DNA from: Amphiscolops sp. MND2022
Lineage: Eukaryota
Direction of reading: 5' to 3'
Assembly: GCA_964187785.1 (NCBI GenBank)
Contig: OZ076409.1
Location: forward strand, 18,230,001-18,294,000
Length of the DNA: 64,000 bases
Below, piece by piece: positions 1 through 61,439 of this stretch. The stretch's first letter is position 1, and each line of letters starts with the position of its first letter. The notes under the pieces are model-generated. The model saw nothing but the letters and a program-made list of their open reading frames with translations. It did no database searches and was not told the origin of the DNA. The translations under genes and the position numbers were made by a program.

Positions 1-1002
1 CAACACCTTGTAATAAGGAATGCAATGAACAGTGCATTGTTAACATTTTTGTTATTTGTATTGATGTTAAGTACGTTAGTTATTTGTTTGATGTTAACTC
101 ACGGTCGATGTAAGTTGGGCACGCCGCCTGTCACACCTATAACCACGTGATGTTTGGAATAACATTTGACCTTACTAGGACGAATTCCTGAAAGTCTTTG
201 AGGTGCTAACTATCTAACTGTATGTCGGTCCTCATGACCATTAAGGAATTTGTCGATTACAAATGGAATTTGATCACACTTGTAAGGGTATATATAGCAA
301 TGTTTCCTTGAGGTGATTATTAATTCCATACCGATTGTTCAGATCAGTTGATTTGTTTCGCATTTATAGATTGCAAGACTAGATTACCAAATAAAATATT
401 CAACCTTGAAATCTTGATGCCTACTACAAGGAAACAAAAGAAAGCTAGAAAGTCTAGAGGAATTGAGATGCTTTCTGACTTGGAGAACCTTGACATAATG
501 CTAGGGGAAAACCACTTCAATAGAAATGAAAGGGACGGAAGTGTTAGTAGCAATTTCGGCAGAAGGCCTGGTAGTACCTCTGCAGATGAACTAGGAAGTA
601 ATGGTGAAAACAGGCACTCAGCCACAAGGGACATTGATCCTGCTAATAATGCCGATTATGGTCGAAACTCAATTGGTGGCAACTCTAGTGCTGAGATTAA
701 CAAGTTGTCAAGTGAATTGAACTCTAGATTATCAAGAGAGTTAGATGATATGATGTGTAGTGTCAATTCTCAGATCCAAAGGGCAATTAGTGATGCAATA
801 AGCAACCAAGTACTCCCACAAATCCAATCCGCCCTTAGTGCCGGGTCAGGACACATGACACAAAACAGATGGGACATTCCGTCCGAGAGACCGGAAATAA
901 ATTCCGAAGGACTGCAAAATACTAACCCCAAAGACAGTTCAACTAGCAAGCATAACCATGACCATCAGAATGATGGTGGTATTAATTTAAATGCTTACGA
1001 CA
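1..1002 (+). repeat. 5' LTR of element 1 (truncated by window start)
   Basis: Matches 14347-15347 with only about 3 differences seen (substitutions near 88 and 643, 1-bp indel near 877); ends in CA. Confidence 0.93.
288..297 (+). promoter_or_regulatory. Putative LTR TATA box
   Basis: GTATATATAG about 125 nt upstream of the gag ATG (417); an equivalent GTATATATATG lies near 49706 in element 2; AATAAA at 390-395. Confidence 0.45.
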
Positions 1003-2129
1003 TGGTGACAGGAGACAACGAATCTCCGAATCAAGTTCCTGAGTTTCTCACAGGACGGATTCTATCGCGGAATCATCTTGACCAGTCCTATGAAGACATC
1101 AACCTTAACACGACGATCCCAGCACAAGAAAGACCCGCTCCGGTTGCCGAATCTGATCCAATTACTAGACTGGCAGATGTCTTGACAAACATGCAGAATC
1201 GACCAACAGCCCAACAACTCACCATACGCCCGGTCAACTCAAATACCATGACCTTTGACGGCAAAAGTGAGAAATTTGAACTGTTCGAAGATCTGTTTCA
1301 TACTATGATCAAGATGCAGCCAGAAATGACTGAACAAATGAAGATTAACCATTTCCACTCGCTTTTGAGGAAGAATGCTCTTCAGACGTTCAGAAATATC
1401 AACTCGACCAACCGACAGACTCTTGAAGACGTTTTGGTCATTTTCCGACGAAAATACGTCAAACCCGAGTCACAAGCGACTGCCAAGCACAAATGGCACC
1501 GCTTGGTCTTTGATCCCAACACGATGAAATTACCGGATTTCCTTGAAGAATTGAATCAAGGGGCAGAAAAAGCATTCGGCGATCATGCACAAAAAATGAT
1601 TGACAGCCTATTGTACGCAAAACTGCCTCCGAAACTCAAGCGATCAGTCAACATGGCCAGATTAGAAAATGGCTCTTACGACGAAATAGTTGCTCATTTG
1701 GAGAGGGAACTAGAGCTTAACGCCCTTGAGGAGTCAGATGACCTACCCATGGCAACAATGACCTCCTCATCCTCCAAGACTAAAACCCCTCTGTCCACTA
1801 ATCAAATGTCAGATATAACTTGCAACTACTGCAAGGAAAAGGGCCACATGGTCAAAGACTGTGAAAAACTCAAAAAGAAGAAAGAAAAAGATGCCCAACA
1901 AGGCAAATCGACGGAGAAGAAAACGTACCCTAAATGCGGGACTTGTGGCAAGAAAAATCATCCAGAGGAGCGATGTTGGCAGGGAGCAGGTGCTCACTTG
2001 AAACCCAAACGAACCAGACCTGAAGATTCTTCAGACACCGACAATGACTCCAAGGCACCCAAACCACACAACAAACCAACGTCCTCCAATACCCAATCCT
2101 CATCAAACAAAGATGAGTCAAAAAACTAA
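417..2129 (+). CDS. gag: Gag polyprotein (N-terminal 195 codons inside the LTR; capsid-like core; two CCHC zinc knuckles)
   Basis: ORF 348-2129, first ATG 417 (MPTTRK); FDGKSEKFELFEDLF core; CNYCKEKGHMVKDC and CGTCGKKNHPEERC. Confidence 0.9.
   Translation: MPTTRKQKKARKSRGIEMLSDLENLDIMLGENHFNRNERDGSVSSNFGRRPGSTSADELGSNGENRHSATRDIDPANNADYGRNSIGGNSSAEINKLSSELNSRLSRELDDMMCSVNSQIQRAISDAISNQVLPQIQSALSAGSGHMTQNRWDIPSERPEINSEGLQNTNPKDSSTSKHNHDHQNDGGINLNAYDMVTGDNESPNQVPEFLTGRILSRNHLDQSYEDINLNTTIPAQERPAPVAESDPITRLADVLTNMQNRPTAQQLTIRPVNSNTMTFDGKSEKFELFEDLFHTMIKMQPEMTEQMKINHFHSLLRKNALQTFRNINSTNRQTLEDVLVIFRRKYVKPESQATAKHKWHRLVFDPNTMKLPDFLEELNQGAEKAFGDHAQKMIDSLLYAKLPPKLKRSVNMARLENGSYDEIVAHLERELELNALEESDDLPMATMTSSSSKTKTPLSTNQMSDITCNYCKEKGHMVKDCEKLKKKKEKDAQQGKSTEKKTYPKCGTCGKKNHPEERCWQGAGAHLKPKRTRPEDSSDTDNDSKAPKPHNKPTSSNTQSSSNKDESKN
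1003..1014 (+). promoter_or_regulatory. Primer-binding site of element 1
   Basis: TGGTGACAGGAG immediately after the LTR CA end; the same 12-mer with one mismatch follows the element 2 LTR; the priming tRNA (ending CUCCUGUCACCA, possibly Leu) is not verified. Confidence 0.85.
2120..2126 (+). promoter_or_regulatory. -1 ribosomal frameshift slippery heptamer A AAA AAC at the gag/pol junction
   Basis: Lies directly before the gag stop; the -1 frame is open (KLTSPRLQ...) into pol; same heptamer at 51331-51337. Confidence 0.8.
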
Positions 2130-5100
2130 CTTCGCCACGACTCCAATACAACCAACTAATATCCGTCCGTCAATACATCAGGTCGGATCCTCCGACGAAA
2201 ACTTTCCATGAATACCAACAACAATTGATGGGTTACCCCTCTGTTGTCTGGCAGCAACAGATGGAAAAAGCTACCATTATCACCTATAATAATACCCATT
2301 TGCTCCAAAAACCAATTCCTGTATGGGACCCTGATTACACATCTGCTTTCACTAGCCGATTCAGGCCCATTCCCTTGGTAGACGACTACAACCCTACCTA
2401 CATAGATCCTGACTACGGACGAGATCCCTATTGGGATACCGAACTTTACAACCAGGATTTGTTGCAATTCCAATACGTTATCGATGACATAGAACTCTAT
2501 AACAGATCAGTCCACGACAATCCACCAATCACCCATAACAAGAAAACCAGAGCATTGATTGAAACATGGCAGATGAATGATGGTACAAGACATCCGGTGT
2601 TCCCAAACCCCTTGGGGACCGAAACCTCAGACAAACCAGAAGAAACAATACCACAGTCACTACTTGATGAAAGTCAGTTCCAGAACATCCTCATCACTAG
2701 AGAAGGAGAACCAGACTGTATTCCTCTGTCCACCAGCATAAACTTGAAATGCAAAAAACGCATGCTGTATTTCCCTATGGACTTTGGGGAACTGACCATA
2801 GATGGACTTATTGACACTGGTGCTTTATCCAGTGCAATCCCTGAAATGGACCTCCGGAAAATCAGGCTCCTATCGCCGCAATCAGTCATCCGGGAGGGTC
2901 CACCTCCGAATTTCCAGATAATGGTCGCAAATGGGCAACTAGAAACTCCAAAGAGTACGATAGAGCTCAAATTTGAAGTTGGTGACATAGAGTTCCATGA
3001 AATTTTCATAGTAATGGAACACTTGACAGGACCGATTATAGGACTCATGTTCCTACAGAGAAACCATACAGTTCTGGACATGAGGCAAGGAATACTGAAC
3101 TTTCCATTCTTTTCGATGCAGCTCAAAACAGCTGATCACAAATACTCGAATGTACTCGAACCAATTTTGAATCCTACCGAAATAACCATTCCGTCAAATG
3201 ACAGAGTCCTAATTAGGACCAATTCCCTATTGTACCCTGAAAACACGGTCACAGGGATTTTACAACCGAGCGACCTTCTCCATGAAGAAGGCGACATCAC
3301 ATTCTGTCCAGCCTTGGTCAGTTTGAATGATGGCAATATACAGATACAGGTAAACAATTTCACAGACCACCCTTACAAGCTCAAAAAGGGACTCCATATT
3401 GCCAGTTTCTCAGTCATGACGCCAGAACAGATGAAATACGTTAAACCGGTAGACCCAGCTTCAACCTGGCATTTGCTACAAAATGACCAAGAGCAGGCAG
3501 CCCATTACGTCAGTAGTCTCATCAAGACTAACAAGAATCCATAAAATACCGAAAACTACTGGTTCCCAACCCCAGAGAACCCAGGGAATCCGGAAGAACA
3601 TACACCAATCCAAAAAAGGATACTCCGTGAATTACTAGCCCTACAGGAACTAGAATCACTTGATCCCACAAAGGACGAGGAATCTAGAACAAAATTCCTG
3701 GAAAACTTTGACTGGAAAGACTCCACATTGACACCTGATGAAAAAGAGAAAATCGAACGATTACTAGTGGAGTTCCATGATATTTTTGCGAGACATAGAT
3801 TCGACATAGGCATGAATGAGGAATTCAAAGTGAAGCTGACACCCAAAGATGATTCCCCAGCCTATAGTCAGAGCCTCCCTGCACCGATAAACTTAAAGGA
3901 GGACATATTAGTTGAATTAGCCATGCTCCACAAATATGGCATAATAACTACCTTACCGTTCTCGAAATACGCCAGCCCAATATTCGCACAAAAGAAGCCG
4001 AATGGGAAACTGAGACTTCTGGTTGACTTGAGAAAAATCAACAACCTAATCTCTGATGATTATATTAACAATAATCATCCAGTCAGTACCCTAGTCGATG
4101 CCGCCCAACACATGGCAGGCAAGAAACTCTTTTGCAAGTTAGACTGTTCACAAGCGTATCATTGCCTTCCGATGGCTGACCAACGTTCAATCGAAATGTT
4201 GGCCTTTAACTTTGCAAGCCGCACATTTGCATATAGACGACTGGCACAAGGCCTTAATAGAGCACTGTCCGCATTCTCCAGCTTTATGAGAGAGTACCTT
4301 GACAAAGTCATAAAAGCGGACCAATGTGCACAGTATGTAGACGATATTGGCATCGCAGCCAACGACGCCGATCACCTCATTGCTAACCTGAGAGCAACTT
4401 TCAAATGCATCCAGGAAGCAGGCCTTAAATTGACGATGCACAAGTGCCATTTTGGTGCCACAGAAATCGATTTCCTTGGCAGGACAATAACCGCACAAGG
4501 CGTCAAGCCCCAACGGCAGAATGTTCAGAATTTCCTAGAAAAAACCAAATTTCCGAAGTCGAAAAAGGCTCTACAGAGATATTTGGGTTTCTTGAACTAC
4601 TACCGGAATTATGTCCCAAGACTGTCTGAACGCCTTGCTCCGTTCTACAAGATGCTGAAGAGTGACGAAAAAGTCCTAGTGTCCAAAGAACTGGTTCAAC
4701 AATTTGAGGAAATCAATCGAGCTCTGGACAAATGCTGCGACTTGGCCCTACAACAACCCATCCCGAACAAGCAAATTGCCCTAATGACAGATGCAAGCTT
4801 TGGTGCTGCAGGATATGCAGTACTAATTGAAGATGACCCGAGTCAGAAATTCACGTCAATCCGCAAATCATATGCACCGGTCGCTTATGGTTCAAAAACC
4901 TTCACCCCAGCCCAGATAAAAATGTCGATTTATGCAAAGGAATTCCTCGCGATTTATTTCGCATTCAAAGAATTTGGGCATATTTTCTGGGGAGCGCCGA
5001 AACCGGTCATAATCCTAACTGACAACAAAGCCGTAACGAGATTTTTCCAGACGAAAATCGTACCCCCAGCCCTGTGGAATGCATGCGACTATGTAATTCA

Positions 5101-7333
5101 ATTCAATTTTGTCATCGCGCACATCCCAGGAGCGCAAAATACGGCAGCGGATTATTTATCCCGATTGGAAGCCGATCCGAAAGACAAATTAGTCATGAAA
5201 ATCCGCGAAGATGTACAAACACTGCCAATAGAAATAAACGTCCAATCAGCCGGAGTCTCACAGGAAGAGCAAATCTTCTACACAAATGACGACGATGAGA
5301 CTGAAGAACAATATTGGGCGAGGAAAGAAGCAATCAGGAAAAACCCTGTAACTGAAGAACCTACTGTCACAATACAAACTCTATCTACTAACTTAGTCAA
5401 ACAACAACCTGAAATACAGGTCCGATTGAGGAAAACGAACCAGATAATTATTGAGCAATCCAAAGATACAGTACTGCAACAACTGAAAGCGAAGCTCCTT
5501 CATGAAGAGTACTCAGAAAACATACTGCAACAAGATGCTCGATACAGGCATTACGCTAATAATCTGGAAAGAATTGTCATCAAGGAAGACATACTAACAA
5601 GGCAATATTTTGATGAAACTGGGAATATAAAATACCATCAAATTCTTCTCCCGCAACACTTGCTGCCAGAATTGCTTCAGTCCCTACACGGGACAGCCCA
5701 CAAGCACCCAGGCATTTCAAAGATGCTGCAGGAGATCAGACAGAGATACTATTATCCCAACATGGCGAAACATGTCAAAAAGTGGGTACAAGGGTGTGAA
5801 CAATGTGCAAAGGACAAACGAGTCCCAAATGCAACAATCACGCCCGAACTACTTAACTTGCCGGAATGGGACCTTGGACCCGAAGACGCCATGCAAATCG
5901 ACTTATTGCCGAATCTTCCCCCAAGTGGAGGATACGAAAATGTTTTAACTGCAATTGATGTCTTCTCTCGATACTTGTTTGCTTATCCTCTTACGGACGC
6001 ATCAGCGATCAATGTAGCTAAAGCAATCATTGATATTATGACCAAACATTCTTACCTACCGACGACGCTCATTACGGACAAGGGAACTGCCTTTACCTCC
6101 ACGATCATTGCGGAAATTACACAGATTTTAGGCATTACCCTAAAATGTGCAACGACCAAACACCCGCAAACTATCGGGAAGTTAGAGCGAACACATGCCT
6201 CATTGAAAACGAATTTGAAAATGGCATGTGGAGAATATCGCCGACAATGGCATAAGTATTTGCCTTTAGCAGTTCTCAATCATAACACTAGTTATCATGC
6301 CAGTATCGGATGCGAACCGACAAGAGTGTTCCATGGGAGAATCCCATATAACATCTTGGATCACAAACTTGGAATGAACCCAAATGAGCAAATCCATCCG
6401 ACTACTGAATTCGCAGAAGAAATCCAGAACCGAACCAAACTCCTTATTGACAAGACAAAGCAGAACATCATGCAGTCATATATCAAATATAAGGAGTATT
6501 ACGACAGGAAAGCCAAAGCCGCCCCACTCAAAGAGGGCGATTACTGTTTTGTATTACAACCGAAAGCGGATCATCAAGGATCAAAAATTCCATTTAGGGA
6601 TTATCGTTGGGTTGGACCGTTCATAGTCCAGAAGATTTTACCTAATGAGAACTACATCATCCGCAGGCTTAATACAAATAAAACGCAGATTTTGCATCGA
6701 ATTCGTCTCAAAAAGTTTATTCCGAATCAGCCACTTGAGGACAATTTCCGAGAACAGCGCCTACAGCCGGACGACGAAATAATCATTCCGCAAGACGACT
6801 TGTATGTAATAACGTGGGAAACAAACTTTGGTGAGCAACTAGCTACACGAGGCAACGAGCCGATTCCGGCTAGCCTGACGAATGGCGAGAGGCCGACTAC
6901 GCCAGAAACGAATGTGAATGATGCAAACGAGAATGAAAGTGATTATGTAATCACGACTGATTATCCGAATGACGTCAACGACGCTGTGCGCAGTAGAACC
7001 GAAAGAATGAGAAATGACGTCAGCAATGCTAATGAACCTAGTGAAGCAAATGAGAATGAAAACTCTGATTGGCCGAATCCGGCCGTTTCCACAACGGATC
7101 AAGAAAAACCTGTGCCGAATACGGTTGAAAGACTAAAAGACGATGCGAATTTTCCAGAAAAGAATTTGATGAATGAAAACGATGCACAAAATTCTCCGAA
7201 AAAGGGGGATGATATTATCGTGCCCGAAATATCGCAAAATGATGCTAGAAAAGAGAGCTTGAGCCCCAGAGGAGGGAAATATAATCTCAGGCCTAATCCT
7301 AACCCAAACTACTCAGAAGACTTCAGATACTAG
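2126..7333 (+). CDS. pol: Pol polyprotein (PR, dUTPase-like, RT, RNase H, integrase) interrupted by one in-frame stop at 3542-3544
   Basis: LIDTGALSS protease; QYVDDIG RT; TDASFGAAG and DNKA RNase H; HGTAHKH...CEQC, IDVFSRY, TDKG, ERTH and WVGPF integrase motifs; ORFs 2225-3544 and 3728-7333 are in the same frame. Confidence 0.93.
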
Positions 7334-7585: not shown

Positions 7586-10500
7586 TCAGGATTTAGTAGA
7601 AGAATCCTTACTAGGACTACCAACGACAGAGGATGACGATGATCGGGAAACACTCCTTCCCTTCTTCCGCTTCTTGCTACTGGGGATCCTTACTGCGGAC
7701 TGATCTTCAACGGTACTACTCTCTGCCAAATTGACCTGCGTTGAAACCCTCTTCGGAGCTGAGTCGGCTTTGCGGTGAGTGGACAGGAGAGACTTATAGA
7801 TTCTTGACCGACCGAAAGTGTCAGTATAAACCCAAGGATCGTACTCTGAGGAAAAGGCAGCACGTCCAAAGGACTCAGCTAGAGCAGAGAACTTGGCCAA
7901 GTGGGAGTCTTCACTGCTCCGTAAAACCGATCCGGCAACATTGGCCATGTAACTCTGGCAAGGCAAGACCAGGTCCGTAAATCTGCTTTGCCCTCCTGCA
8001 GTGGTGACCTCTCCAAAGGTGACATCTGGGTAACTTGGGCTGACGGTGGTTGAACACAAACAACTCAATTTGAAGAGATATAACAAGTGTGGACGATCAT
8101 GAAGAAAATCAAGCCCCATCAGGAATTGAATCAAATCGGGTTCCACGCTAGTGATATCAAAGCTGGAACCGAAGGCAGTCTGGAGATGGTCCAGCAACTG
8201 AATATACTGGTCCCGACACTGAGACTCATTTGAATCTTCAACCCAAGATCGAAGTACAAAGGTGTTGTAGAGTACCTCGAAGTGCCGCAAAGCTACATCC
8301 GTGGGTCGCTTCAGCATTATATAAGGATCAAAGGCCGCCAATCCTTTTATGAGGTTGGTGCTGAAAGCTGTCTTCTCGAGTACTCCATTAATCAAAAACT
8401 GGATGTACTGCTGGCTGTCCTTGACGAAATCAGCTTTTACCTTATCGGCAGTGGCCAGGATGGCAGGACGTTCAGTTTTCTGGCCGAAATGGATTCCATC
8501 AGCCTTGACTCTGCTTGCCGTTGCCACTCGATTGCTCATCTTGAGACGAATCAGGTATTCGTCTCCGGGGAGGAAAGTACCCTCACTGGTCTGGAACCGG
8601 AGGAGGAGAAACCAAGCGTTGGCAATTGGGGCAGTGTCCGGAGTATAGATTCGGGAGCAAAGCAGGCTGAGGAAGCGGCTAACTTCTCCGCATAGATAGA
8701 AGGAAGCATCCTGGCGGTATTGCAGATTCACTGTGAAGCTGGAAACGACTAAAAACAAAACTGATGTCCAACTCAAGACAGTTTTCTCTCACGAAAATTG
8801 TACAGGACTACACTCACAGTCATTGACGATCTTGCTGAAGAACTCCAGCTTAACGGTGAAGAATTCGTCACATATCAGTGACCACTCGAAACTTTGTGCC
8901 TGGAACAAACATATGGCCAATTGACGATTGGAAAACGGACCTTTAGTTTGTTTGACGGATAAGGACAACCCAAACCCTTAGGGGCTTAAGTGCAGATAAG
9001 GAAATCTAACCCTTCCTCTGGAGCCAGATCCTTCTTGCAAGGGTGCGTGATTAGTGAGGTAGCGCACCACAGACTTCCACTCGGCAATGAGCTCTCGGCA
9101 AAGAATGGGCAGGGTTGGTACTTCTAGCTTGCAACTGGTTATGGCCTGAAATACCAATTAAACCTGCGTTAGCATGATAGGGATATCTAAACGTCCTGAC
9201 CCAGTTCCCGTTCCCTAGATGAAGATTCTATAAGAAAACTACTCACCTTGGTGAGCTCAGGACTTCTGATGACCCAGTCTTCCATGAGAGAACCGCCCAG
9301 AGAGACCATCAGAGCTTGCAGGACAGAGAAAAAATCTATTTTCCCAAAGACGCTGTAGCTGGTTTTATGCATGAGGCAAGCTAGGGAGAAATGTTCAAAT
9401 CGAGGACAGCTCTGAACCCCTTGGTTGTAATATCCAGACTCATCAATGGTTCTGGGTAGATCTGGATGACATCCCGAACAGGCGACTATTCCGGGCTTTG
9501 TGGACACAGCGGAGAGGAGGCGAGAAAGAGATCCCAGTTCGCCGGTAACATCTGTAGTGAATCGGGAGCTACGACAGACGAACACCCTACAGAGTTCAGA
9601 CCCCTTCCAGAACTTGATGGACATGTGTTTGAAAATTCCTACTGTTTCAAATTCGAGGGAGAAGCACTGTTGGGAGTTGACTTGCTCCGCGATTTCATCA
9701 AGACAACAGATGAAGAAATGTTGGAAAATCGCCTAAAGACAGAAAGCACCTTTTGGACTAAATAGGAAAGAGGAAGACTTAGGAGAGACTGTCAATGAGT
9801 GAAGCGAAAAGTACTTACCGACAATCTTTCTTCACCCCAATCAAAATCGTTGAAACTGCTTTGATGGTTGGTGAACGATCCAATTCGGGACCACAGGTTG
9901 CGCAAGACCATCATATCGCCTTGGGTCCTGATGTAATCCCCAACCAGGCAGAGCTGAGTTTTGAGGCGAGCTTCAGGGGTGTCCATGGTAGTGGTGGAGC
10001 CTTTGACGAAGTCGTCATAAAAAGGAAAGCGCTCACCAATGTCCACTAATTCAACATTCCTGAATTTAGGCAGCTCTCTAGCTAACTCCACCTTGGTCAG
10101 GAGTTTCCCGTTCCCACCTCGGACTCGGTGTTGCGTCTTCCCTGTGACTGGATCGACACTGCGGAGGTGTTCGTATCGCCAACGCTGGTCTCGCCGCAGA
10201 TGACGTGCAGTCCGATGGTGCCTGAGGATTTCGTATGGCCCCTTTGACTTTATGGAAAAATTCTTTTTACAAATGTGGCACCAGACCATGAGTGGATTAT
10301 GAAGAGGATCTGCTGGGCCAGAAATGAAGGATCTCGTCCATCCAATTTTGCTAAAGAATTCCTCCCGCATAGGGACCCCACGTCTGGAGAGGGCCTTGCT
10401 TCCTTTCTTCTTTTTAGTCCCGGAGGATCCAGCGCTGGGTGCGGCTAGAGCTTGATTCCTAACCTCAAGCAACGTATCATCTTGGCTACTGGACTCTGGG

Positions 10501-11810
10501 GCATCAATCTCAACATCCTGTGATATGTCTTGACTGGGAGTTTGCGGTTCAGGAGCGCCTTGACCTTGTGTGACCTTCTTGAAGGACTTGGTTATAAGAT
10601 CCATTTCCGTTGCGCTGTCAGTCTCCCCATAATAGGAGGACTCTCCTGTCATTTCAGTCTCAGTTGATCCAACATCTCTGTCCCCCAGAGTGGCTTCCCT
10701 TTCGGTGTCACTTCCACTGGAATCTCCCATGGCTGCAGGTCCAGGAGTCTGAGCTCGTCTACCCGAGTAGAAATGTGCAGTCCTGGATGGAGCAATGGCT
10801 GGCCTGCCTCGAACCGCATCAATAACCATTTTTTCCATGGTTGAGAAGGACCGTCCTAGAGTCTCATCGGTAAGGACTCTCAACAAGTGATATACTTGCG
10901 GCTCTGTGAAGGTGACGGTGGATTGGCCTACGGGGAACCTCGAGGATGGCGACTCATCGAAATACTCCTTGAGAATTGCCCGACTCCTTCCTGAGAGGTG
11001 TGGTGGTTCTTTCTGAGTTGCGCCTTGCCCGGACGACGGCCCACTGGTACCTGGAACGTGAGGGTCAGGCCCAGTTTCGTCCCCTCCATCTGTTCCAGAG
11101 GCGTGAGAGAAAGGATGACTTCCATATAAAGCTACTGCAGCTATCACGCTGGACTGGTCGGTTGCCCCCTCATCTCCGCTGGGCTCTGTGAGGTATCGAA
11201 CTCTTACTTCCCCACCGGGGAGGGGTGGAGCGTCTCCTACCGAGGAAGCTGCTTCCGTGTCCTGCTGCAGGGTTGGGCTATCTCCAGTGGTGTTGGCTGA
11301 AAGATCAATATCCACAAGTTCAACTAATTGGGATCCGGGTGTCCCGACTACTCGAAAGGCTGACTCTAGAGCAGAAAGGTCAGCACTTGGGGTCTCCCCC
11401 ACATTATCAGAAAGTGGGGTGCTCGCTCTTCTAGGCTCAATGATGGGCGTAATGACAGGATCCTTTGGGGTATCAAGATTGACTTCTGAGAATTGGCCTC
11501 TTTGCTCTGTCTCCTCTTGCGGAAGGCTTGATGTTTGCGCTCCCTCCAACTGACGTACCATATTGTCTGCATATGTAGTAACATCTGGGTCACTATCGGC
11601 GTTATGGGAAGAAGTGGCTTCGTCAATTCGTTGGCCGTGTGATTCTTGGGACGTAGCTGGATGCTGGACCTGCTCAGTCTGTTCAGACAAGGGGTTGCTT
11701 GTCGAAACGCTGTCAGAGGGGTTAGCTGGTGTATTCACAACTTCAGTTGTTTGGTTCTCTAAACGAAAAGAGATAAAATTTGGCGGTATGCTTCCTCGAA
11801 AAGAATCCAT
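7586..11810 (-). CDS. Spliced antisense accessory gene of element 1 (~1285 aa; Zn finger plus hAT-transposase-like body). Exons 11810-9819, 9732-9247, 9145-9011, 8899-8818, 8748-7586
   Basis: Four GT-AG introns (86, 101, 111, 69 bp) whose removal gives one open frame colinear with the uninterrupted C-terminal part of ORF 57373-60135; true start uncertain (strong acceptor at 11759-11760). Confidence 0.85.
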
Positions 11811-12873
11811 ATTACCGCGTTAGAAATCTTCCGGAAGTATCTTAGACTTGAACAAAACGTGTTATCACGTGCCTATTAGTGGAAACAGGAAGCGCTGTAC
11901 GAACGAAATTTAGCCCTGATCAAGCTAAGCTAGTTCAACATGTGAAAACCAGACCAACCTGTACTCGAAGACATGCTTCTCCAGTATCGTTAGTCCAAAG
12001 TAGAAGAATGAGGAACAACGAAGGGACTGTGTGATTGAGCCAATCTCGGCTGGGGAAGGAAGGAACCAGAGATTCTCTGAGAGGGAGATGCCACTCGTGA
12101 TGAGAGGAAAGGACGTCGTAATAGCAAAGTGTAACGAATATGCAAATGTGTTGAATTTGAGTGGAGACAAATGGAAGTTAGATGGAATTGAAAATGTAAC
12201 AATCAGATAGGATCGGAGAGTTGGAGTTCGTGGCTGAAGATTTACCAGACTAATATTATTCGATTATCTACATATTTAAAACTGTACACGGAGTCTGCCA
12301 GCGAAATGTACAGAAAATTCCTCGTTATTTATAACTTCGTTAGTTGAGTGGCCGATTACGGCCTTTTACCCTACTTACCTTTACCGTTTTGTTCCGTTGC
12401 CTTTATTACCCTTAGTTAGAAATCGCCATTTTAGAATAGTCAAAATTATTATTTTTCGCCATTTTATTTATTAATTTTTCATTTTATCAACGGGTAATTC
12501 TGATTGGCTAACGCCATGTTGAGAAAGAGCTACGACGAGCGCAGTTAATTACCTTCAAGCGACCTGTTAATTACCCACTTGAAAATAGTGAAGTTGGTTT
12601 TGATGACTCGAGTGTTATTCACATCTCTCCAAGCGGTGTAGTAGATGGGGGGTAAACATTGGATTATCAAAGGCAGCCAACTAATTATGGAATTCCATTC
12701 AAGAATGTTTATGTCGGATTGGGAGATTCGACTGAGGAATTCTACCGCCACAACGAATTGCCGGGAAAAGACCGAACTCGGCTAATACCCTAAGTTTGAT
12801 AAATTCATTCAATCTCATATTTCATCGACAAACAGTTGACTTGCCTAGACTCAAAATTGCAAAGAAATACATA

Positions 12874-13658
12874 ATGAGCAAATTTAACCTCTCAAGGAAA
12901 TTATTTGATCTTGAAGGTTGCGACTCAGATGAATCTACTGATTCAGTAATCTACATCTCTAGCGACGAAGAAGAGTCCTCATACTGGGAATCGGACTGTT
13001 CTACCGACACGGAACAATTAATCGCCCGCATAGAGAAAGAGGTTACGTCGAGCCCAATGCTGATCGCAGGACGAATTATGACGGTGGACACAACGGAAAA
13101 TGATATGGTGGCTGGACCAAGCACGTCAAAGACGGACACTGAGATGACACCTAAACTGGATCACAGGTATTTCGACATAGACAGGTGCTACGCCCCCCCC
13201 CGAAGAAGGCCGGAAAATCAAAAATCGAGATTTGTAGTACGATTTTGCCAGTTTTGGAGTCGCCCCTATCTCCCCCGGATCACGAAAAGGGCCCAAGCAA
13301 AGACACCCCTTTGGTCCAATCAACTAGTGGGAGCTTCCGTGCCTCATATCATATTCAGAACTCGAGGCCCTACGACGATATAAGCAGACAACGGTGTACT
13401 AGTTGCATGGTCTGCGGGAGAGCAGTAGATGAAATCAAAGAGGAAAAAATCAAGTGGTATATGGACAGATCGACCCCCAGAGGAGAGCCTGAGTACATCA
13501 CCAAATTGAGGCGGGAAGCGTACGTGAACGGTCTTAACGCCGGCAGCTTACTTTTCATTGCACCCGCAGTGTCGCAGGCTGCCGCCTGTGATGGCAACAA
13601 CTATACGACCTCGGGATACGGACAAGAAATTACCCCAGGTACATTACCCATTTATTAA
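12874..13658 (+). CDS. Small acidic accessory ORF3 of element 1, split by a frameshift in a C9 run (13193-13201)
   Basis: ORFs 12796-13383 and 13185-13658 join to ~261 aa with one extra C; contains VIYISSDEEE and CTSCMVC; positional counterpart of 61440-62036. Confidence 0.6.
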
Positions 13659-15347
13659 ACTCAAAACTGCAATTGCCAAGACTCGCTTTAACTATTTTAG
13701 TTTATTTATCCAAACTGAATATTAGTCTGTTAAGTACAATTTGGAATTGTCCAAATTGGGATGTTTTATGTTGCAAATGTGTTGAATACAATTACAGCAG
13801 AGCAATGTAATATAAAGCAACTGTAAGGCAGTATAGGAAACGTGTTCAAGTGATGCTAAGCGCTGATCCAAAAGCGTCACTTGAGCGCATTGTCTTATCC
13901 AATCAGAGCGCTGTATTTGTTGTGCTATATTAGCTTTGTTGCTATCATGGCCTAATTAGGCCTATTTCCTAAATAACGCTTGCTGTACTGTATTACTTGG
14001 TCAAACGGCCGGTTCCGGCCATTTTGTACAAATAGTTAATTGACGTTGCTTTGATAGTAATAACCGGACCTATTATTTCAAATTCACTTTAGTCCACTTG
14101 TTGATGCTATAATTATACTCCCCCTCTGCCTAAATGTGAGAAATGAGCATAATAATAATTGCAGTTGGAATGAAGCCTCTCCCCACCTTTTCCCAGTGCA
14201 AGACTGAAACCCCGGACATGGCCAGTTTCGGCCTCGTGAAAATAACTTGCACCAATTTCACTGCTGCGTTTGTTGATCATGATTTATTCAATTTGATACG
14301 TGAATTAGACGGCACATGGCAAGCCGCGTGGCAGCACGTGCTGTCTCAACACCTTGTAATAAGGAATGCAATGAACAGTGCATTGTTAACATTTTTGTTA
14401 TTTGTATTGATGTTAAGTACGTTAGTTATTTGTTAGATGTTAACTCACGGTCGATGTAAGTTGGGCACGCCGCCTGTCACACCTATAACCACGTGATGTT
14501 TGGAATAACATTTGACCTTACTAGGACGAATTCCTGAAAGTCTTTGAGGTGCTAACTATCTAACTGTATGTCGGTCCTCATGACCATTAAGGAATTTGTC
14601 GATTACAAATGGAATTTGATCACACTTGTAAGGGTATATATAGCAATGTTTCCTTGAGGTGATTATTAATTCCATACCGATTGTTCAGATCAGTTGATTT
14701 GTTTCGCATTTATAGATTGCAAGACTAGATTACCAAATAAAATATTCAACCTTGAAATCTTGATGCCTACTACAAGGAAACAAAAGAAAGCTAGAAAGTC
14801 TAGAGGAATTGAGATGCTTTCTGACTTGGAGAACCTTGACATAATGCTAGGGGAAAACCACTTCAATAGAAATGAAAGGGACGGAAGTGTTAGTAGCAAT
14901 TTCGGCAGAAGGCCTGGTAGTACCTCTGCAGATGAACTAGGAAGTAATGGTGAAAACAGGCACTCAGCCACAAGGGACATTGATCCTGGTAATAATGCCG
15001 ATTATGGTCGAAACTCAATTGGTGGCAACTCTAGTGCTGAGATTAACAAGTTGTCAAGTGAATTGAACTCTAGATTATCAAGAGAGTTAGATGATATGAT
15101 GTGTAGTGTCAATTCTCAGATCCAAAGGGCAATTAGTGATGCAATAAGCAACCAAGTACTCCCACAAATCCAATCCGCCCTTAGTGCCGGGTCAGGACAC
15201 ATGACACAAAACAGATGGGACATCCGTCCGAGAGACCGGAAATAAATTCCGAAGGACTGCAAAATACTAACCCCAAAGACAGTTCAACTAGCAAGCATAA
15301 CCATGACCATCAGAATGATGGTGGTATTAATTTAAATGCTTACGACA
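13570..15347 (+). repeat. 3' LTR of element 1 (right end firm, left end inferred)
   Basis: 14347-15347 matches 1-1002; candidate start TGTCGCAG at 13570 is inverted to the terminal CGACA and resembles the element 2 start TGTCACAG, but no clear PPT precedes it. Confidence 0.7.
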
Positions 15348-16421: not shown

Positions 16422-16439
16422 GTATATCCAATCTTTTCG

Positions 16440-20862: not shown

Positions 20863-21133
20863 TCCGCCTCCCTGGTTCCACATATTAAAAAACGTCTCAG
20901 CGTTCGCGTACTGGAACTTCATCGGCAATGTGGTAGCCACCAATAGAGACAATTTCGGGAAAATTTTTGAAAGTTGCTTTCCGAAAGTTGCAGTCACGAA
21001 AGTAAAAAAGCGGACTTTTTCAAAGTGAGCGCTGTGCTGTGGAGAAAAAAAACTAGTCTTGGCAAGAATCGGGAACATTTCCTACAAAATCCATCAACTG
21101 AAAACATAGGAAGCTGTATCCTGAATGTCTTCA

Positions 21134-48426: not shown

Positions 48427-48819
48427 TGTCACAGCCCCACTTGAGCTGTGAGTATTGCAGCAGAGTCAACCCAGTCTTCGAAGAATAAATTAGGAAATGG
48501 AAGAAGGAGAAATTAAAACAGAAAACCAGAAAACAATCAGTCCAATCCATATAACCTGAAACAATGGCGATAAATAATATGTACAACATAATTGATTAAA
48601 AAAATATATGTTTACATATNNNNNNNNNNNNNNNNNNNNNNNNNNNNNNNNNNNNNNNNNNNNNNNNNNNNNNNNNNNNNNNNNNNNNNNNNNNNNNNNN
48701 NNNNNNNNNNNNNNNNNNNNNNNNNNNNNNNNNNNNNNNNNNNNNNNNNNNNNNNNNNNNNNNNNNNNNNNNNNNNNNNNNNNNNNNNNNNNNNNNNNNN
48801 NNNNNNNNNNNNNNNNNNN

Positions 48820-48868
<49 letters not shown>

Positions 48869-50227
48869 CCGCGGCCTGGGATGCGGCCTGAGAATGATTA
48901 TGCACCAAGTTGATTATAAAAGCAGTAAACGCTGATGTTATTACGTATTTTTGTTCAGGAATAAACATGGAGCTTATTAATTGTGTTCATGAAAGATGTT
49001 GTCGGTTAAATTTTACATATAATGATTTTTTGCATGTAAATAGTGATTGATTATTAAACAAGCCTGGACCTCAGCCTGGGCCCAAGATTTAGTTGTACAC
49101 CTTAATAACATGTATTTCCTATTCCCCGAACCCGTTGCTGTTGAATTATGTTGACCATCGCCCAAGATGGTGCTTTTCATAAATATTCGTCACCAGAATT
49201 TATTCTTTACCTCCTGAAGTAAATTTGTCCGTCCCGGACTGTGGCCTGGGACTAATGCCTCACAGTTCTCAGTCAAATCAGCCTTGTAAACTTCGCATGA
49301 ACTGTCCTATCTACTCATTTACTTTCCTGTGCGCGATTTTGTTAGTCTAAAGCTAGAACGATGCTATCTTTATCAATCTAAGGAATATTTTTGTAAAATA
49401 TTGACTGTCATTCTTTTTCCAAATTCTCATATTCAATTTGCAGTACTCTTGATGATTCACCGCTCTCAATTTCGCCAAGTTCAGCTTCGGCGTCTTGAAA
49501 GAGAGGGAAATTGGAGGCGAAGGGAAGCGGAGTCGCAACTCAGACAGGAAGTGGACGCGTGCTTTCTTCGGAAAGCATGAACAAGCTGAAGGTCTGAGTT
49601 CGACAAAGCGGAACTGAACTTCCGGTTTCCCCGCTTGGGATGGACGCCGGGCTGAACGGCATGTGAAATATTGTTGTGTTTTCCCCGCTCTTCGGAGAGT
49701 GAAAGGTATATATATGCTGAAATTTGGGAGCCATTAGTAGTTGAAATTTTGTTTCGTTGCGAATTAATAACTTGCTAATTAAACGACAGTTAACATTTTT
49801 CAATCTGCATTTTCTTTGTTCATCAATCAGTTTGAATTATTTCTTAAGAAATTTGAGATCAATCCAAACAGCATGCCTGAGCGAAGTTCTGAGAGGAAAG
49901 CCAGAAGTGAATCAATCACAAGTTCAGTAGATGAGCCAGAGAGTTCGAGCATGAGGACGGGCAATGTCCCCAGCATTTCCGACAAAGATTTTGCTGACTT
50001 GACACAAAAAATTGAAAAGTCGGTGAATAAGCGGATTAAGGACACAGAAACCGGACAACGAGAATTACTGAAATTGATAGAAAATTTGTCTTCTAAAATA
50101 ATTTCGTTGACTGACAAAACGTCTTGCGATTTGAATCAAGGATTGAATGGAGTAAACTCTGAAAACGTAATACTAGAGAATAGACTCATAGAATTAAACG
50201 AATTCCATCAAGATGTCAGTCAACACA
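48427..50227 (+). repeat. 5' LTR of element 2 (contains assembly gap 48620-48819 and a (TA)n run)
   Basis: Both sides of the gap match 61975-63916. Confidence 0.93.
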
Positions 50228-51340
50228 TTGTGACAGGAGTATCTCCCCAACCAGAAAAACCGCCCCGGTCATCAAGCTTGCCGCCCCCCAACCAGAAATA
50301 CCCGGACCACATAGTAGACAAATTACTCGAATCGCTCCAGAATGTCACCCAACAGAACATCGGACTTCCCCGACTACCGAAGGCATTGTCAACAACTATG
50401 CCCACCATCAACGGACGAAATGACAAATTCGAGCATTTCGAAGACCTCTTCACGACAAGCCTCAAGGTATACCCTAACATCTCTGAGGAAGAACAAATCC
50501 TATACTTCCACTCCCTACTCAGGGATGAAGCACCCCAAACATATCTTAATATGACCGACACAAATCGTGCCAGCTTAGAGGACATCATTGCCACATCCCG
50601 ACGCAGATATGTACGCCCCCAATCCATCTCAACAGCCAGATGCAATGGGAGCAACTCCACTTTGATCCCTCACGACAAACATTCCAAGACTTTTTGGATT
50701 AATATCAAAAATTGGCGCAAGAGGCATACGGAGAAGACGCCCCAAAATTCATAGAAACATCTTTCTATGCCAAAATGCCGATCCACTTAAAACGAGTTCT
50801 CAACCAAGCAAGGTTAGAAACAGAATCTTACGATTTAATGGTCCAACAGTTGGAGAGGAAAATGGAATTAAACGGACTGTTGGCCCCCAACAAAACCAAC
50901 ATAACAGGTATACACCAAATCGAAGTACAAGAAACACAACAAGCCCCAAACCCTCCCAAACCGACAGGCCCATGCTACGGATGCGGACAAGCTGGCCACG
51001 TCGTCAAAAATTGTCGAAAAGTAGCCCGCGAAGCCCGCAATAGAGGCAACAGAGTACCTAACAAAATCGTCGACCCATGCGAAACATGTGGCAAGAAGAG
51101 CCACTCAACGCAGGATTGCTATTCAGGCACAAACTGGCGAACCGACCACAATGGTGGAAAACCCCAAAAACTACGCCTCCGAACAACATCCCGATAACCC
51201 CACAACAAGGTCAGTACATAAAAGAAAACTCACAATTAACCCAACCCCAATATCAAAACCAGACAACCGGCCAAATGGGCTACCTAGCCCCACCCCAATT
51301 GACAGCTCAATCTCACGAACAAACCCAGCCAAAAAACTAG
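49873..51340 (+). pseudogene. gag: gag of element 2, frameshifted; starts inside the LTR
   Basis: ORF pieces 49816-50754, 50712-51197, 51077-51340; NGRNDKFEHFEDLF; CYGCGQAGHVVKNC and CETCGKKSHSTQDC. Confidence 0.9.
50228..50239 (+). promoter_or_regulatory. Primer-binding site of element 2 (TGG mutated to TTG)
   Basis: TTGTGACAGGAG directly after the LTR end. Confidence 0.8.
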
Positions 51341-54300
51341 TTTCGCCACATCTTCAGTTTGGGGAAATTGTCGAAACCCGACATTTCACAACATCGGAGC
51401 CCCCAAACACGTACGATCAAGAAGAACCCAATGAGCGCTGTGAACAACCATCTCTCGACTGGCAGCGATGATGGCAAATTCACAAGCTCCACAAATACAA
51501 CCGTCAAACTACGACCAAAAAAGACTACCCACAATGGGACATTGACAACCCGACCGACTACAAAACTCCAAAACGACCCTTACCAGAAAACACCTCCCCT
51601 GAAACCTACATTCATGACCCCGACTTCAATTGCGATCCGTACCACAATCCCCAATTTTACGACAGAGAAACATTAACCTTTAAACAGAGAGAGAGTGCAC
51701 GCCATTTGAGGAATACATCAAGAAAACGGAAATGAACATCTCAACAGAGCCACGTCACAGACCAAAAATTGCCCAACCTGTACCAGATTACGACCAAGAT
51801 GTAGAACGTGTGTCAGAAATATTAGTCGATAACCCCACTAACAGACCCAAGTCCATACTAAACAATCAGGGATCTCAAATCACGGCCCCCCAATCACCAC
51901 CAAAAGACCAACAAGTCAACCCTATCAGAGCCGGAATCATACGATCCCCAACAATGGACGTGGCACCCGACTGCCACCAACACGAAAACATCACCTGCAG
52001 GAACACGACTGAAGCCGTGGACCTGGCCCAACCCACAATCAACAAGAAGACAACACCCTCCAAACTAACAACAAGGAGGATCAAGAGGTCTCTACTTTTA
52101 GAGCCCCCCACCTCAATAGTCAGCCGCAAGATGAAGTTGAACTCACCCAACCCATTATGGCTGACGCAACTAACATGCAGTCTGAATCCCAACCAGGTGT
52201 TGCAAACAGCACACCTCAACAGGACAGCCCCAGGTCCTACCCTTCAAAGCAGACTGCAGAATACCCGAGGCAAAACCATAGGGCCAGGGGAACTCCCAGT
52301 TCCCTCTTCCAAAACGACAGTCAGTCTGAAAACCGCCACAGGACGAACCCCAGTCCTACCCTACGGCCCAGATTGCAGAATACCTCACAAGGGACCCCGT
52401 GACCAACGAGCATTGCATCCCAATTTTCTCAGCAGTAACACTCAAGAAGAAGAAGAAAAAGCTATTTGCTCCAATGGATTTCCAGGACCTAACCCTGGAT
52501 GCCCTCATAGACTCCGGCGCCCTTGTTAACTGCATTTCAGAAACAGACTACAACAAAATCCTCCAAATGTCTCCCAAGGACATAGTTAAAGAATTGGAAC
52601 CACCCACCTTCAAACTTCAAGTCGCAAATGGCGACATCGAAACACCAACCAAGACAATCATCCTCAAATTCGAAATAGGGGACTGGAACTTTAAAGAAAC
52701 ATTCATTGTTGCCAAACGACTGACAGGTCCAATACACGGCCTCACCTTCCTCAAGAACAATAGCGCCATTCTGGATGTGAGTCAGGGCCTGCTCCACTTC
52801 CCTCATCTCACATATTCCATCTAAACTGATGAGTATACCCGCAACAGGAAGCTCTATAAAGTCCAAATAATGAACCCATTCACCATTCCTCCCGAGACAA
52901 CGCAGACAATCACTGGCTACACGGACATATCATCCAGCATCGACACAACCGGTGTCATCAACCCAGCCACCAATCACTGTAGCGGTGACCCCCTGGTGGT
53001 AGCCAGCTCAATATCAACGGCCTCGAACCGCAAGATCGACGTCAGGGTGACCAACACCACCACCACACCCTACACCATAAAAAAGAATTCGACGATAGCG
53101 GAGTTCAAAATTATGTCGCCAGAAGAAGCCAAAGAACTCAAACCACTCAACACAGCAGCACTCAAAGTGCTCACTGAAGATGATTCAGAAGACGCAATAG
53201 TCTATATCAATGAACTTCTAAAAACTTCTGACAAAGCCTCCAACAACCAAAACTTTTGATTCCCCACGCCAAATGACCCCGGGGATCCTTCTACCCACAC
53301 GCCGATCCAAGGCCGAATATTGCGAGAAATAAAAGAACTGGAAGAGATTCAGAAACTAAACCCTACCAACAGCGATGAAGAAAGGGAGGCATTCCTCAAA
53401 AACTTCAAATGGGATGACACACAACAGTCAGCAGACGACCAAAAAGACATCGAAGAAATACTCATCGAATTTACCGATCTTTTTGCCAGGCATCAACTAG
53501 ACATTGGAATCAACCACGATTTCAAAATCAAACTCACGCCGAAAACAGATGAACCAGTCTACTCACAGAGCTTGCCCTGTCCTATCAACGTAAAAGAAGA
53601 CTTGACAGTGGAACTGGCATTAATGCACTACTTCGGGATCATAACAACCCTCCCATTCAGCAAATACGCCAGCCCGATCTTTGCCCAGCGCAAACCGAAT
53701 GGTCGACTGCGCCTACTAGTGGACCTCAGAAAGATCAATAACTTGATCTCGGACGATTACATAAACAACAATCATCCGGTCAGCACATTAACCGATGCCG
53801 CGCAACACCTCGCTTGCAAGAAGTTATTTTGTAAGCTTGACTGCTCACAAGCGTACCACGTACTGTAGATGGCAGACCAGAAGTCCGTTCAACTCCTCGC
53901 CTTCAACTTTGTCAGCAGAACTTTCGCGTACCTCGGACTGGCCCAAGGACTGAGCCGATCACTATCGTCCTTCTCAAGCTTCATGCGAGAATACCCGGAC
54001 AAGGCCATAAAGGCGGACAATTGCGCCCAATACGTGGATGACATTGGAATTGCCACAAACACTCCCGAAGAGTTGAAGAACATTTTGAGAGAGGTCTTCC
54101 AGTGCATCCGCGCAGCAGGACTCCGACTTACAATGGCCAAATGTCAGTTCGGTGCCAAGGAAGTCGAGTTCCTTGGGCGAACAATCTCTCCATCGGGTGT
54201 GGCGCCCCAGAGCCACAAAATCCAGAAGTACTTGCAAACGCTCAAATTCCCCCGAACAAAGAAAGGACTTCAAAGATACATCGGATTTGTAAATTATTAC

Positions 54301-56981
54301 AGAAACTATATCCCCCGATTATCAGAGAAGATCGCTCCTTTCCACGAACTCATAAAATCTGACAAGCCAGCAAAAATCGACCAAGAACTTATATCCAACT
54401 TCGAAGCCATCAACAAGTCATTGGACAACGCGTGCGGACTTTGGCTCAAACAACCACTGTCAAACCGACATTACGTCTTGATGACTGACGCCAACTTTAA
54501 AAACGCCGGATACGCCCTAATGACCGAGGAGGACCCAGAACAGAAGATCACTTCCACCAAGTAAACCTATGCCCCTGTAGCATTTGGATCCAAAACTTTC
54601 TCCCCGTCACAATTGAAAATGTCAATTTATGCCAAGGAGTTTTTGGCCATCTACTTTGCCTTCATGGAGTATAGCCATATCTTGTGGGGGACCACCAAAC
54701 CAATCATTGTCCTCACAGACAACAAGTCAGTCACGAGGTTTTTCCAAACCAAAATGATCCCACCCTCCCTGTGGAACACCTGCCATTTCGTACTCCAATT
54801 CCACTTCAAAATCGCCCATGTACCAGGACGGATGAACACGGCGGCCGATTTCCTCTCCCGATTGGACATCAGCCCCAAAGAAAAAGTCCTTCTCCAAATC
54901 AGAGAAGACATCCAAACAACACCCATTCAGGTGAACATTCAGTCCTCCGACATTCATGAGGAAGACCAGTTCTACTTTTTACCGGAAGACGACTCCGAGA
55001 CAGAAGAAGATATCTGGGAGCGAAAACAAAGAGCACGCAAGAAAATATACAACCCCCAAGAACACCAAACTGACTCACCAGCCGCGACAAATGAGACAAT
55101 CTCTCGAACGGAGAACTTACCATTAGTCTGCAATAATATCCAAGACCCAGAACAAGAACAAAGGCGAGAACAAACCAACTTCACAGTGACTCAAGCTTCC
55201 CACGCAGTCTGAGGCTGCACCAGGACCAGGACCCCGTCCTCCGAAATCTCAAACTGAGAATGTTAAAGGAGCCGTACGACACCCAACTTCTGAACGACGA
55301 TCCCAGAGCAGCCAAATACTTAACCCAAGAAGACAGAATCATCATCAAAGATGGGCTACTGTACAGACAATACTTCGGAGACAATGGGAAAGTGAAATAC
55401 TTACAGGTGCTACTTCCTCAACAGCTGGTCGACGAATTCATCCAACACCATCATGGAAAATATGGCAAACACCCAGGGATAGCCAAAACCATCCAACAAT
55501 GCCGTGAAAAGTACTGTTTTCCAGGACTCGCTGCCAAAATAGCCAACCACACCCCTTTCTGCAAAGAATGCGTCCAAACAAAGAGAACTTCAAACAGTAG
55601 CATCACACCACCTTTAATTGATATGTCACAACTAGCACTGGGACCTGAGGATGCGCTTCAAATGGACATAGTCCCATTTGACGACCCATCAGGAGGATAC
55701 AATGCGGTTATTACAGCAATGGATGTCTTCTCACGATACCTATTTGCATACAGTGTTGCTGGATTTGATTCCAGAACCGTCACCCGAGTCCTAATAGACA
55801 TCATTACTCGACACAGCTACCTCACCACAACCATCATTACTGATAAAGGGTCCCAATTTGTAGCAGAATCCATGCAACAAATCACTACAGCTCTGGGAAT
55901 CCAATTTAGGCATGCTACAACAAAACATGCCCAAACGATAGGCATCCTGGAACGAACTCACGCATCACTGAAAGAGAGTCTCAAAATTATGACAGGGGAA
56001 AGGCGTACAATGTGGCATTAATTTTTACCAATGTCGGTATTAAACTACAATACCTCATATCACACGTCCCCGGGCTGTGAGCCCAGCAGAGTGTTCCACG
56101 GAAGAGTCCCCTACAATGTACTTGGTTTGAAATACGGACTCAAAACACAAAATCCTGCCCCAACCAACAGTGAAATTGCTGAAGGAGTGCTCCGACAGAC
56201 AAAAGAAATCGTTGAGCAGACACAACAGTCACTGATGCAGGCCTACGTTTGCCATAAACTCTATTACGACAAGAAGGCCTCCGCCAACCCCTTGGTAGTA
56301 AACGACTACTGCTATGCATTGCATCCAAAGGCGCATAGCCAATCGACAAAACTGCCGTTTAGGGACTACCTTTGGACGGGACCATACATCGTGGTCGAGA
56401 CTTTACCAAACAACAATTATCTAGTTCGAAAACTTCAGACAAATCTCACACAGATCCTACATAGAATCAGGCTCAGACCATTTAAGAGTACACACAAACT
56501 GCCTGACATCTCCACACCCCTCAAGGATTTCCAGCAAGATAACGAAGTTATTATACAACATGACGACCTATACGCCTTAGCTTGGCAAGAGTTTTACCAA
56601 AAAGACCCTACCCATCTCGGAAACAGCCCGTCACCCGAACCCAAATTGATACCGCCAAACACGGAAACAGCCGACGAAACCACCCACCCCGACACAATAC
56701 CCGAACCTGAAAACATCAGCAATCACCCGGAAGCCCAGGCAGATGACCTAACCCTAGACATAGCCGATGAACCCGAAGATCCCGCACCCACCCCTAAATC
56801 CCCCCGAAAATCAAAGTACAATCTTCGACAAAATCCGACATCAAATTTGAAGCCGGATTTCGCTTACTACAACCCTATAGAAGTCAATCCAAACAACTCG
56901 ATAATCCTGAATCACGGGCCAGACGACAGCCCAGAAACACAAGTTTTAGCGGACCTCGGCCCTGACGGTGGCCTGAGATAA
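51337..56981 (+). pseudogene. pol: pol of element 2 with multiple stops and frameshifts
   Basis: LIDSGALV, QYVDDIG, TDANFKNAG, HHGKYGKH...CKEC, MDVFSRY, WTGPY; stops ending at 52824, 53259, 53868, 54564, 56021. Confidence 0.93.
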
Positions 56982-61221: not shown

Positions 61222-61439
61222 CTGAAAATAACAAACCATGAAACATAAAAAAGAAGATGTGGCGTAAAATCAATGGAAATATTAATACTAAAAGTTATCT
61301 ACTATAAAAGGAGAGTTGTTCAGTCTGCCAGCTCAACAATTCAACAAGCTCAACACAAATGGTGTGAACAGATTTTCAGGACGCGGATTAGTCAGTTATA
61401 TTCCTAATCAACTGACAATCAGCTTGCTACTCAAACAAA

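Follow-up and report, generated by a model that had tools for sequence, protein, structure and literature searches.

Two Gypsy-type LTR retrotransposons carry, antisense between pol and the 3′ LTR, a gene that almost certainly descends from a transposase of the hAT superfamily and has lost the catalytic residues. With the same near certainty, a class I element has here domesticated a class II enzyme. The encoded protein is very probably made and useful to its element, and there is about an even chance that it serves its own element family as an activator or anti-silencing factor that binds DNA in the nucleus. A slightly more tentative, wider reading describes the gene as a trans-acting sequence-specific factor of one Gypsy clade, carried as an intron-bearing antisense cassette whose alleles are swapped between subfamilies and which forms, together with a second accessory gene (ORF3), a regulatory layer resembling that of complex retroviruses.

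The window analyzed here is a 64-kb stretch of a 1.07-Gb eukaryotic assembly. It contains two complete Gypsy-type LTR retrotransposons, elements 1 and 2, each flanked by a 5-bp TSD (table 1). The assignment to Ty3/Gypsy is based on paired LTRs with TG...CA ends, the 5-bp TSD, and the order protease-RT-RNase H-integrase. The Pfam domains are arranged as gag, protease, RT, RNase H, and integrase (in element 1 DUF1759, zf-CCHC, gag-asp_proteas, RVT_1, RT_RNaseH, Integrase_H2C2, and rve). The two LTRs of element 1 are 99.8% identical across 1779 columns, and an in-frame stop at 3542–3544 sets its protease frame apart from the RT frame. Both elements share a common layout in which pol is followed by a long minus-strand gene and then by a short sense ORF3 that enters the 3′ LTR. 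ORF3 is conserved in relatives and is a second accessory gene of the carrier elements; no significant Pfam match was found for it (best zf-C2H2_12, E = 0.023, in one frame). By its position, the spacer from which the antisense gene and ORF3 diverge is a putative internal promoter region. The observed/expected ratio of CpG (0.64–0.97 within the elements vs. 0.96 in the flank) is not decisive.

Table 1. Coordinates of the features of elements 1 and 2 within the 64-kb window.
Feature	Position	Strand	Basis and remarks
Element 1 5′ LTR	1..1002	+	Starts 777 bases ahead of the window; TG...CA; TSD GCCTA
Element 1 gag, protease/dUTPase-like, RT-RNase H-integrase	324..7333	+	ORFs and Pfam; gag begins within the LTR
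Element 1 antisense gene, exon 5	7586..8748	-	Helical domain, C-terminal hAT-like block without ERxFS motif, Ser/Lys/Arg-rich tail
Element 1 antisense gene, exon 4	8818..8899	-	Comparison with relatives, spliced frame
Element 1 antisense gene, exon 3	9011..9145	-	Helical insertion domain begins
Element 1 antisense gene, exon 2	9247..9732	-	RNase H-like core; first catalytic Asp position is Glu, second is Ser
Element 1 antisense gene, exon 1	9819..11810	-	Low-complexity arm (~465 aa), then C2H2 finger and N-terminal helical part; donor conserved in relatives
C2H2 (BED-like) zinc finger, CxxC-x16-H-x5-H	10200..10280	-	Aligns with the finger of DDE-intact relatives
Spacer between divergent starts of antisense gene and ORF3	11811..12876		Position only
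Element 1 sense ORF3	12736..13658	+	ORFs; acidic, CxxC, runs into 3′ LTR; two overlapping frames in this copy
Element 1 3′ LTR	13570..15347	+	Pairs with 5′ LTR
Element 2 5′ LTR	48427..50227	+	Contains a 200-base N run; TSD GTTGG
Element 2 gag-pol	49783..56981	+	ORFs and Pfam; split by stops into several frames
Element 2 antisense gene	57373..59831	-	One exon spanning the whole hAT-homologous part
Element 2 sense ORF3	61416..62036	+	ORFs; runs into 3′ LTR
Element 2 3′ LTR	61975..63916	+	~95% identity to 5′ LTR

Several further features of the elements and their surroundings were recorded. ORF3 is acidic and Ser-rich, has a pair of Cys near its end, and in each of the three family lineages (including loci L254, L262, and L237) overlaps with the beginning of the 3′ LTR. 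The gag gene starts within the 5′ LTR in both elements (324–1030 and 49783–50260) and reads across the LTR end and the primer-binding site, so that each 3′ LTR carries a copy of the gag start; gag likewise starts inside the LTR in L296–L298. A weak dUTPase-like region is located between protease and RT in both elements (2117–3544, Pfam E = 0.038; 52825–53259, E = 0.054). No purine-rich tract is present ahead of the 3′ LTR of element 1 (13545–13569), though its family is young. A 16-base unit is repeated 53 times in an array (15583–16422) 235 bases downstream of element 1. The window also contains several MITE-like inverted-repeat elements and dispersed repeats (20155–23500, 32010–32404, 34064–34840, 36653–37046, 37918–38450, and 47993–48421), and element 2 appears to be inserted within one of them.

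The antisense gene of element 1 consists of five predicted exons (11810–7586, minus strand) that join into a single open frame of 1285 aa and are separated by four GT-AG introns of 69–111 bases each. The predicted splicing is based on a comparison of relatives. In an alignment of the element 1 gene with three relatives the splice sites are conserved, the intron interiors have diverged with indels, and most exon differences fall on third positions. When 40 family loci were aligned with splicing allowed, introns fell at three shared profile positions, in 33, 31, and 32 loci respectively, and the core introns are absent in six of the 40, as they are in element 2. These loci are a non-random sample chosen from the hits of three queries, and the second-round profile took in first-round models. 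The original prediction had placed the gene at 7586..10350: the end at 7586 stands, but the start is now located beyond that range, at 11810, and the added part includes the low-complexity arm of ~465 aa. This N-terminal arm of the element 1 protein is mildly acidic (D+E 15%), and a KKRKK stretch in the exon 5 tail (7675–7661) is a possible nuclear signal.

In element 2, a splice acceptor is located ahead of 59831, where the antisense exon starts, and the first ~115 codons of the 933-aa frame are probably intron read-through. The element 2 family profile matched the exon frames of element 1 at 95.3%, 82.9%, and 65.2% and the spliced element 1 protein with E = 4e-35. Judged by these comparisons of sequence, the two antisense proteins are homologous along their full length. 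The motifs quoted in the original prediction were all recovered on the minus strand, in element 1 as CHIC (10280–10269), RHHRTARH (10223–10200), FSLEFET (9663–9643), and FLHDRPH (8107–8087), and in element 2 as CSIC (59604–59593), RHFKCKGH (59547–59524), FSLALQSS (59109–59086), and a C-terminal block (57915–57865).

The hAT origin of the gene is supported by a fold match and by profile comparison. A structure was predicted for the element 2 protein (pLDDT 71) and shows an RNase H-like fold of the Hermes type that contains a large helical insertion; the zinc finger is poorly modeled (pLDDT ~47–58). In a Foldseek search against the PDB all of the ranks 1–10 were Hermes transposase (best E = 2.1e-4, next family 0.045), and a VIA comparison with Hermes gave Z = 13.1 (rmsd 5.4, 405 aligned; next match Z = 6.6). 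The profile comparison used cleaned alignments of 31 family proteins (16 seeds and the 15 out of 40 models that were free of stops and whose introns were all conserved) and of 77 transposase pieces. The latter represent a DDE-intact subgroup that was reached via a transposase motif, which retrieved 121 metagenome stretches of this other transposase group, and the antisense family profile hit these with E values down to 3e-10 among 1224 frames. Family and subgroup profiles matched at 98.3% (E = 1.4e-14) over 619 columns that extend from finger to C-terminus, with 98.5% in a second comparison and 1.7% in a reversed control. The subgroup itself reached 95.2% against Ac-type hATs, with the D, D, CxxH, RW, and E positions all in register, and its fold matches Hermes. 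The Ac-type hATs of this genome were considered as a direct source and rejected (family profile match of just 0.5%).

The DDE-intact hAT-like subgroup (L192–L210 and L072–L191) occurs both in this genome and in numerous metagenome contigs. A protein query identified 19 matches in this genome that are largely fragmented, and the C-terminal motif had no match in the genome as an exact pattern. The Pfam hAT models do not recognize the subgroup, zf-BED reaching only E = 0.025–0.05 in two of 20 intact relatives.

A check against the zf-BED and Dimer_Tnp_hAT profiles had been proposed with the original prediction, and neither profile, nor any other hAT family in Pfam, matches the two antisense proteins or 75 family members. 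Dimer_Tnp_hAT is equally unmatched in the intact relatives, and the C-terminal region aligns by profile and by fold. PDB sequence searches returned nothing relevant, whether they were started from the antisense protein and its family profile or from an intact relative and the corresponding profile, and an Atlas query with exon 2 alone gave no usable match. A genome search for PF14291 gave no match, with an equally empty control. By features, the nearest named Atlas clusters were ZBED5, GTF2IRD2, FAM200, and ZNF862 (score 0.85–0.90), which is a weak lead. The predicted derivation from a DNA transposase of the hAT type is borne out by the Hermes match and the profile comparison, and so is the N-terminal BED-like finger, whose ligands are kept in all 31 family proteins and align with the finger of the intact relatives, although Pfam zf-BED itself is unmatched. 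As for the label "hAT/Buster-type", the source is a Pfam-unrecognized subgroup and not the Ac-type hATs of this genome; the direct comparison covered the Ac type.

Within the DDE-intact transposases, the three catalytic positions are occupied by D (18/19), D (14/18), and E (55/57). Not one of the 31 antisense family proteins carries Asp at the first or at the second position, where residues vary freely (Q7, E7, R7, V5, K2, T2, and H1 at the first), none has acidic residues at both, and the ERxFS motif was found in none of them. At the third position, for which the mapping is uncertain, 17 of 31 have D or E. The CxxH motif is limited to element 1 (1/31), and its Cys is not kept in three close relatives. 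All 31 proteins keep the four zinc ligands and the RW-motif Trp of the catalytic pocket; the equivalent Trp and a His of Hermes are described as essential for its transposition (PMC5225508). The profile alignment puts the FSL motif at the site of the first catalytic Asp, as predicted. The accompanying claim that this Asp was replaced by E or Q is correct in that the Asp is gone, but the whole active site is lost and E or Q is not a family-wide replacement. The antisense protein is a hAT descendant, yet it stands outside the active hAT transposons.

The gene could also be a nested hAT insertion, active or decaying, that is carried along without function, and hAT transposons of the source subgroup do exist in the genome. 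This was one of the refuting cases named with the original prediction, and it is itself refuted to the point of retaining hardly any probability: the catalytic triad is missing, a scan around the antisense gene of both elements (up to two mismatches allowed) gave no candidate TIRs with an 8-bp TSD, the gene has conserved splice sites and is under purifying selection, and its placement is identical in 39 out of 40 loci. Among the DDE-intact relatives, 12 loci were scanned for TIRs and TSDs; none was convincing, and an 8-bp TSD is unsupported there.

The identical placement consists of an integrase that adjoins the antisense gene tail-to-tail on the opposite strand (39 of 40 family loci). At 20 loci picked by Pfam rve alone, no antisense gene was found beside the integrase. 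A quick integrase tree, based on cores of sufficient length from 12 of the 20 rve-only loci and 38 of the 40 family loci, places all gene-bearing elements in one clade (SH-aLRT 96). The antisense gene falls into three deep lineages that match the three integrase sub-lineages, and the identities of gene and integrase are correlated (Spearman 0.89, 105 non-independent pairs). First looks by genome search gave 9170 and 6939 candidates, figures that do not represent copy numbers, and 780 representative proteins match the family at E up to 0.001. Two divergent representative proteins have their best matches in this genome at just ~30–39%, and the family therefore probably reaches other species.

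The dN/dS of the antisense gene is 0.066–0.22 in seven of ten pairs (the other three are saturated), and that of exon 5 of element 1 is 0.05 and 0.07 against two relatives (two of three pairs); both sets are rough values with high dS, and the zinc-finger block of exon 1 was left out. On these estimates the gene is under purifying selection with a dN/dS of ~0.05–0.2. For integrase, the pair L239–L254 gave an unreliable value of 0.64.

The subfamily of element 1 is young and expanding. Among 126 matches, 40 are 98–100% identical, all 14 copies that were compared share at least 99.7% identity across 4 kb, and 36 dispersed sites on the 13 large contigs and one small contig are represented by 71 exact LTR ends, with no evident clustering of these sites. 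Two internally deleted copies have lost ~5 kb of gag-pol and kept the last antisense exon. Tandem elements with three LTR ends spaced 14.3 kb apart, i.e., two elements with one common LTR, were observed at G000:C5:67763160-67791869 and G000:C6:27802771-27831475. The expansion bears on the idea of a self-limiting repressor, in which the antisense protein or the antisense RNA would dampen the expression of the element itself. The anatomy would be identical to that of an activator, and silencing via double-stranded RNA is possible for antisense transcripts (PMC7264820). However, the family is expanding, exon 5 stops ~250 bases short of pol (7586 vs. 7333), and protein-level selection excludes a role of the RNA alone, which makes a repressor rather improbable.

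The rooted protein tree, whose root connects long branches and is uncertain, shows the intron-free lineage nested among intron-bearing ones, which suggests that the introns were precisely lost through spliced mRNA. A further feature is seen in 26 pairs of loci with integrase cores at least 93% alike: in 14 of these pairs the antisense genes are just 71–78% alike, the 14 pairs comprising three alleles distributed over seven loci of a single subfamily. Only the antisense gene with its 5′ part shows this drop in identity; pol and the LTR side are mostly 81–98% alike. The silent divergence of the alleles exceeds that of integrase about tenfold or more. The limited drop and the high silent divergence point to an old cassette exchanged by recombination, and the gene appears to have been swapped in this way between otherwise near-identical elements.

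The persistence of several old alleles in one subfamily with near-identical pol and LTR-side DNA resembles an arms race. Such a pattern could mean that the protein does not act on element DNA and instead binds a host silencing factor or poisons competitors by forming mixed multimers with hAT transposases, and related DDE-bearing transposons are indeed present in the genome. However, most differences between the alleles are silent (dN/dS ~0.07), the zinc finger is invariant, and the genomic DDE-bearing copies examined are fragmented, so that either form of interference is considered unlikely.

A role in integration has a minor but real chance. The dead transposase would then bind chromatin or cDNA ends together with integrase and steer or help insertion, in agreement with hAT scaffolds that bind DNA ends and multimerize (PMC10368747), with an invariant Trp equivalent to the Hermes residue that positions flanking DNA (PMC5225508), and with three antisense-gene lineages that parallel the integrase lineages. 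However, the Trp may be structural, antisense alleles have been exchanged while integrase is still 93–99% alike across the loci concerned, and the 36 sites of the youngest family form no evident cluster.

A DNA-binding or scaffolding function is favored because the selected protein keeps the finger and the scaffold without the chemistry, and an activator or anti-silencing factor is preferred within this range because of precedents. The BED domains of Hermes bind subterminal repeats (PMC10368747), and VANC is an anti-silencing gene that is kept by its mobile element (PMC5735166). A preprint, which does not mention retrotransposons, reports that transposases activate cognate copies and act as sequence-specific regulators and that TnpA is transposase-derived (10.64898/2026.08.24.746577). 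Other observations speak against an activator or anti-silencing role: the N-terminal arm is just mildly acidic, the finger is poorly modeled and unmatched by Pfam zf-BED, and 17 of 31 proteins have D or E at the uncertainly mapped third catalytic position, in addition to the following results on target motifs and alleles. A search of seven non-coding regions for a repeated target motif found none above the best-of-many background. The best 6-mer in the element 2 LTR occurs six times vs. 0.3 expected, and the best count in resampled sequences is also ~6. Tandem arrays are absent from the antisense genes and spacers. The three antisense alleles (71–78% alike) adjoin LTR-side DNA that is mostly 81–98% alike, with no distinct LTRs per allele, a pattern that does not look like the allele-to-target matching of the VANC type. 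A short GC-rich motif that is found about six times in the element 2 LTR (62335–62930) is a candidate binding site that lies within the best-of-many background.

Under the activator or anti-silencing reading, the history and action of the gene may be outlined as follows. A hAT transposon would have entered the ancestor of the clade in a single event, in reverse orientation between pol and the 3′ LTR, and then lost its ends and its active site. The antisense orientation would let the introns of the gene survive reverse transcription, since splicing of the genomic RNA does not remove antisense introns. An internal promoter between the antisense gene and ORF3 would give rise to a spliced mRNA, the basic tail would carry the protein into the nucleus, and the finger on the hAT scaffold would bind sites of the element and promote or protect transcription in trans. 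One lineage would have shed its internal introns by recombination with a copy of the spliced mRNA, and template switching would move the cassette between subfamilies. The conserved introns may show how a spliced gene can persist within a retroelement. The large family with its very young subfamily offers natural alleles and matching LTRs, along with one folded protein, with which silencing evasion or target choice by such genes can be tested.

No hAT-derived gene within an LTR element was described in the literature searched, the scope of which did not extend to Repbase or to subscription journals. Accessory domains described for plant elements include host-derived ones and, in the part of that work concerned, none from hAT (PMC13547354). 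Compared with the hAT transposases (Hermes and the DDE-intact subgroup), the antisense protein is alike in fold, domain order, zinc finger, and catalytic-pocket Trp, whereas the gene differs by having no DDE triad, conserved CxxH, TIR, or 8-bp TSD and by traveling only inside an LTR retrotransposon. ZBED5, GTF2IRD2, FAM200, and ZNF862 are host genes that are likewise transposase-derived, whereas the antisense gene is the multicopy cargo of a retroelement; here, a mobile element has done what hosts do and domesticated an enzyme from another class. TnpA (Spm/CACTA) and VANC (VANDAL) are also accessory genes kept by a mobile element, but they are located in DNA transposons, whereas donor and carrier belong to different classes in the present case and no arrays of target repeats were found.

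The closest parallel in position is provided by the antisense ORFs of plant Ty3/Gypsy elements (Retand/Grande, TRP28 PF04195, and GENE23), which lie between pol and the 3′ LTR in nearly all members (PMC11963269; PMC7264820). For the Grande ORF, a promoter of its own and a nuclear protein have been reported and a regulatory role has been proposed (PMC11963269; PMC7264820). A review finds no similarity of the plant ORFs to other TEs and describes their origin as unknown and their function as open (PMC7264820). Pfam detected no TRP28/PF04195 in either antisense protein or in the 75 family members. The gene described here resembles the plant ORFs in its antisense position and its constancy but differs in having introns and in that its source can be traced to a hAT transposase, which provides a traceable origin for an antisense accessory gene of a kind known in plants without one.
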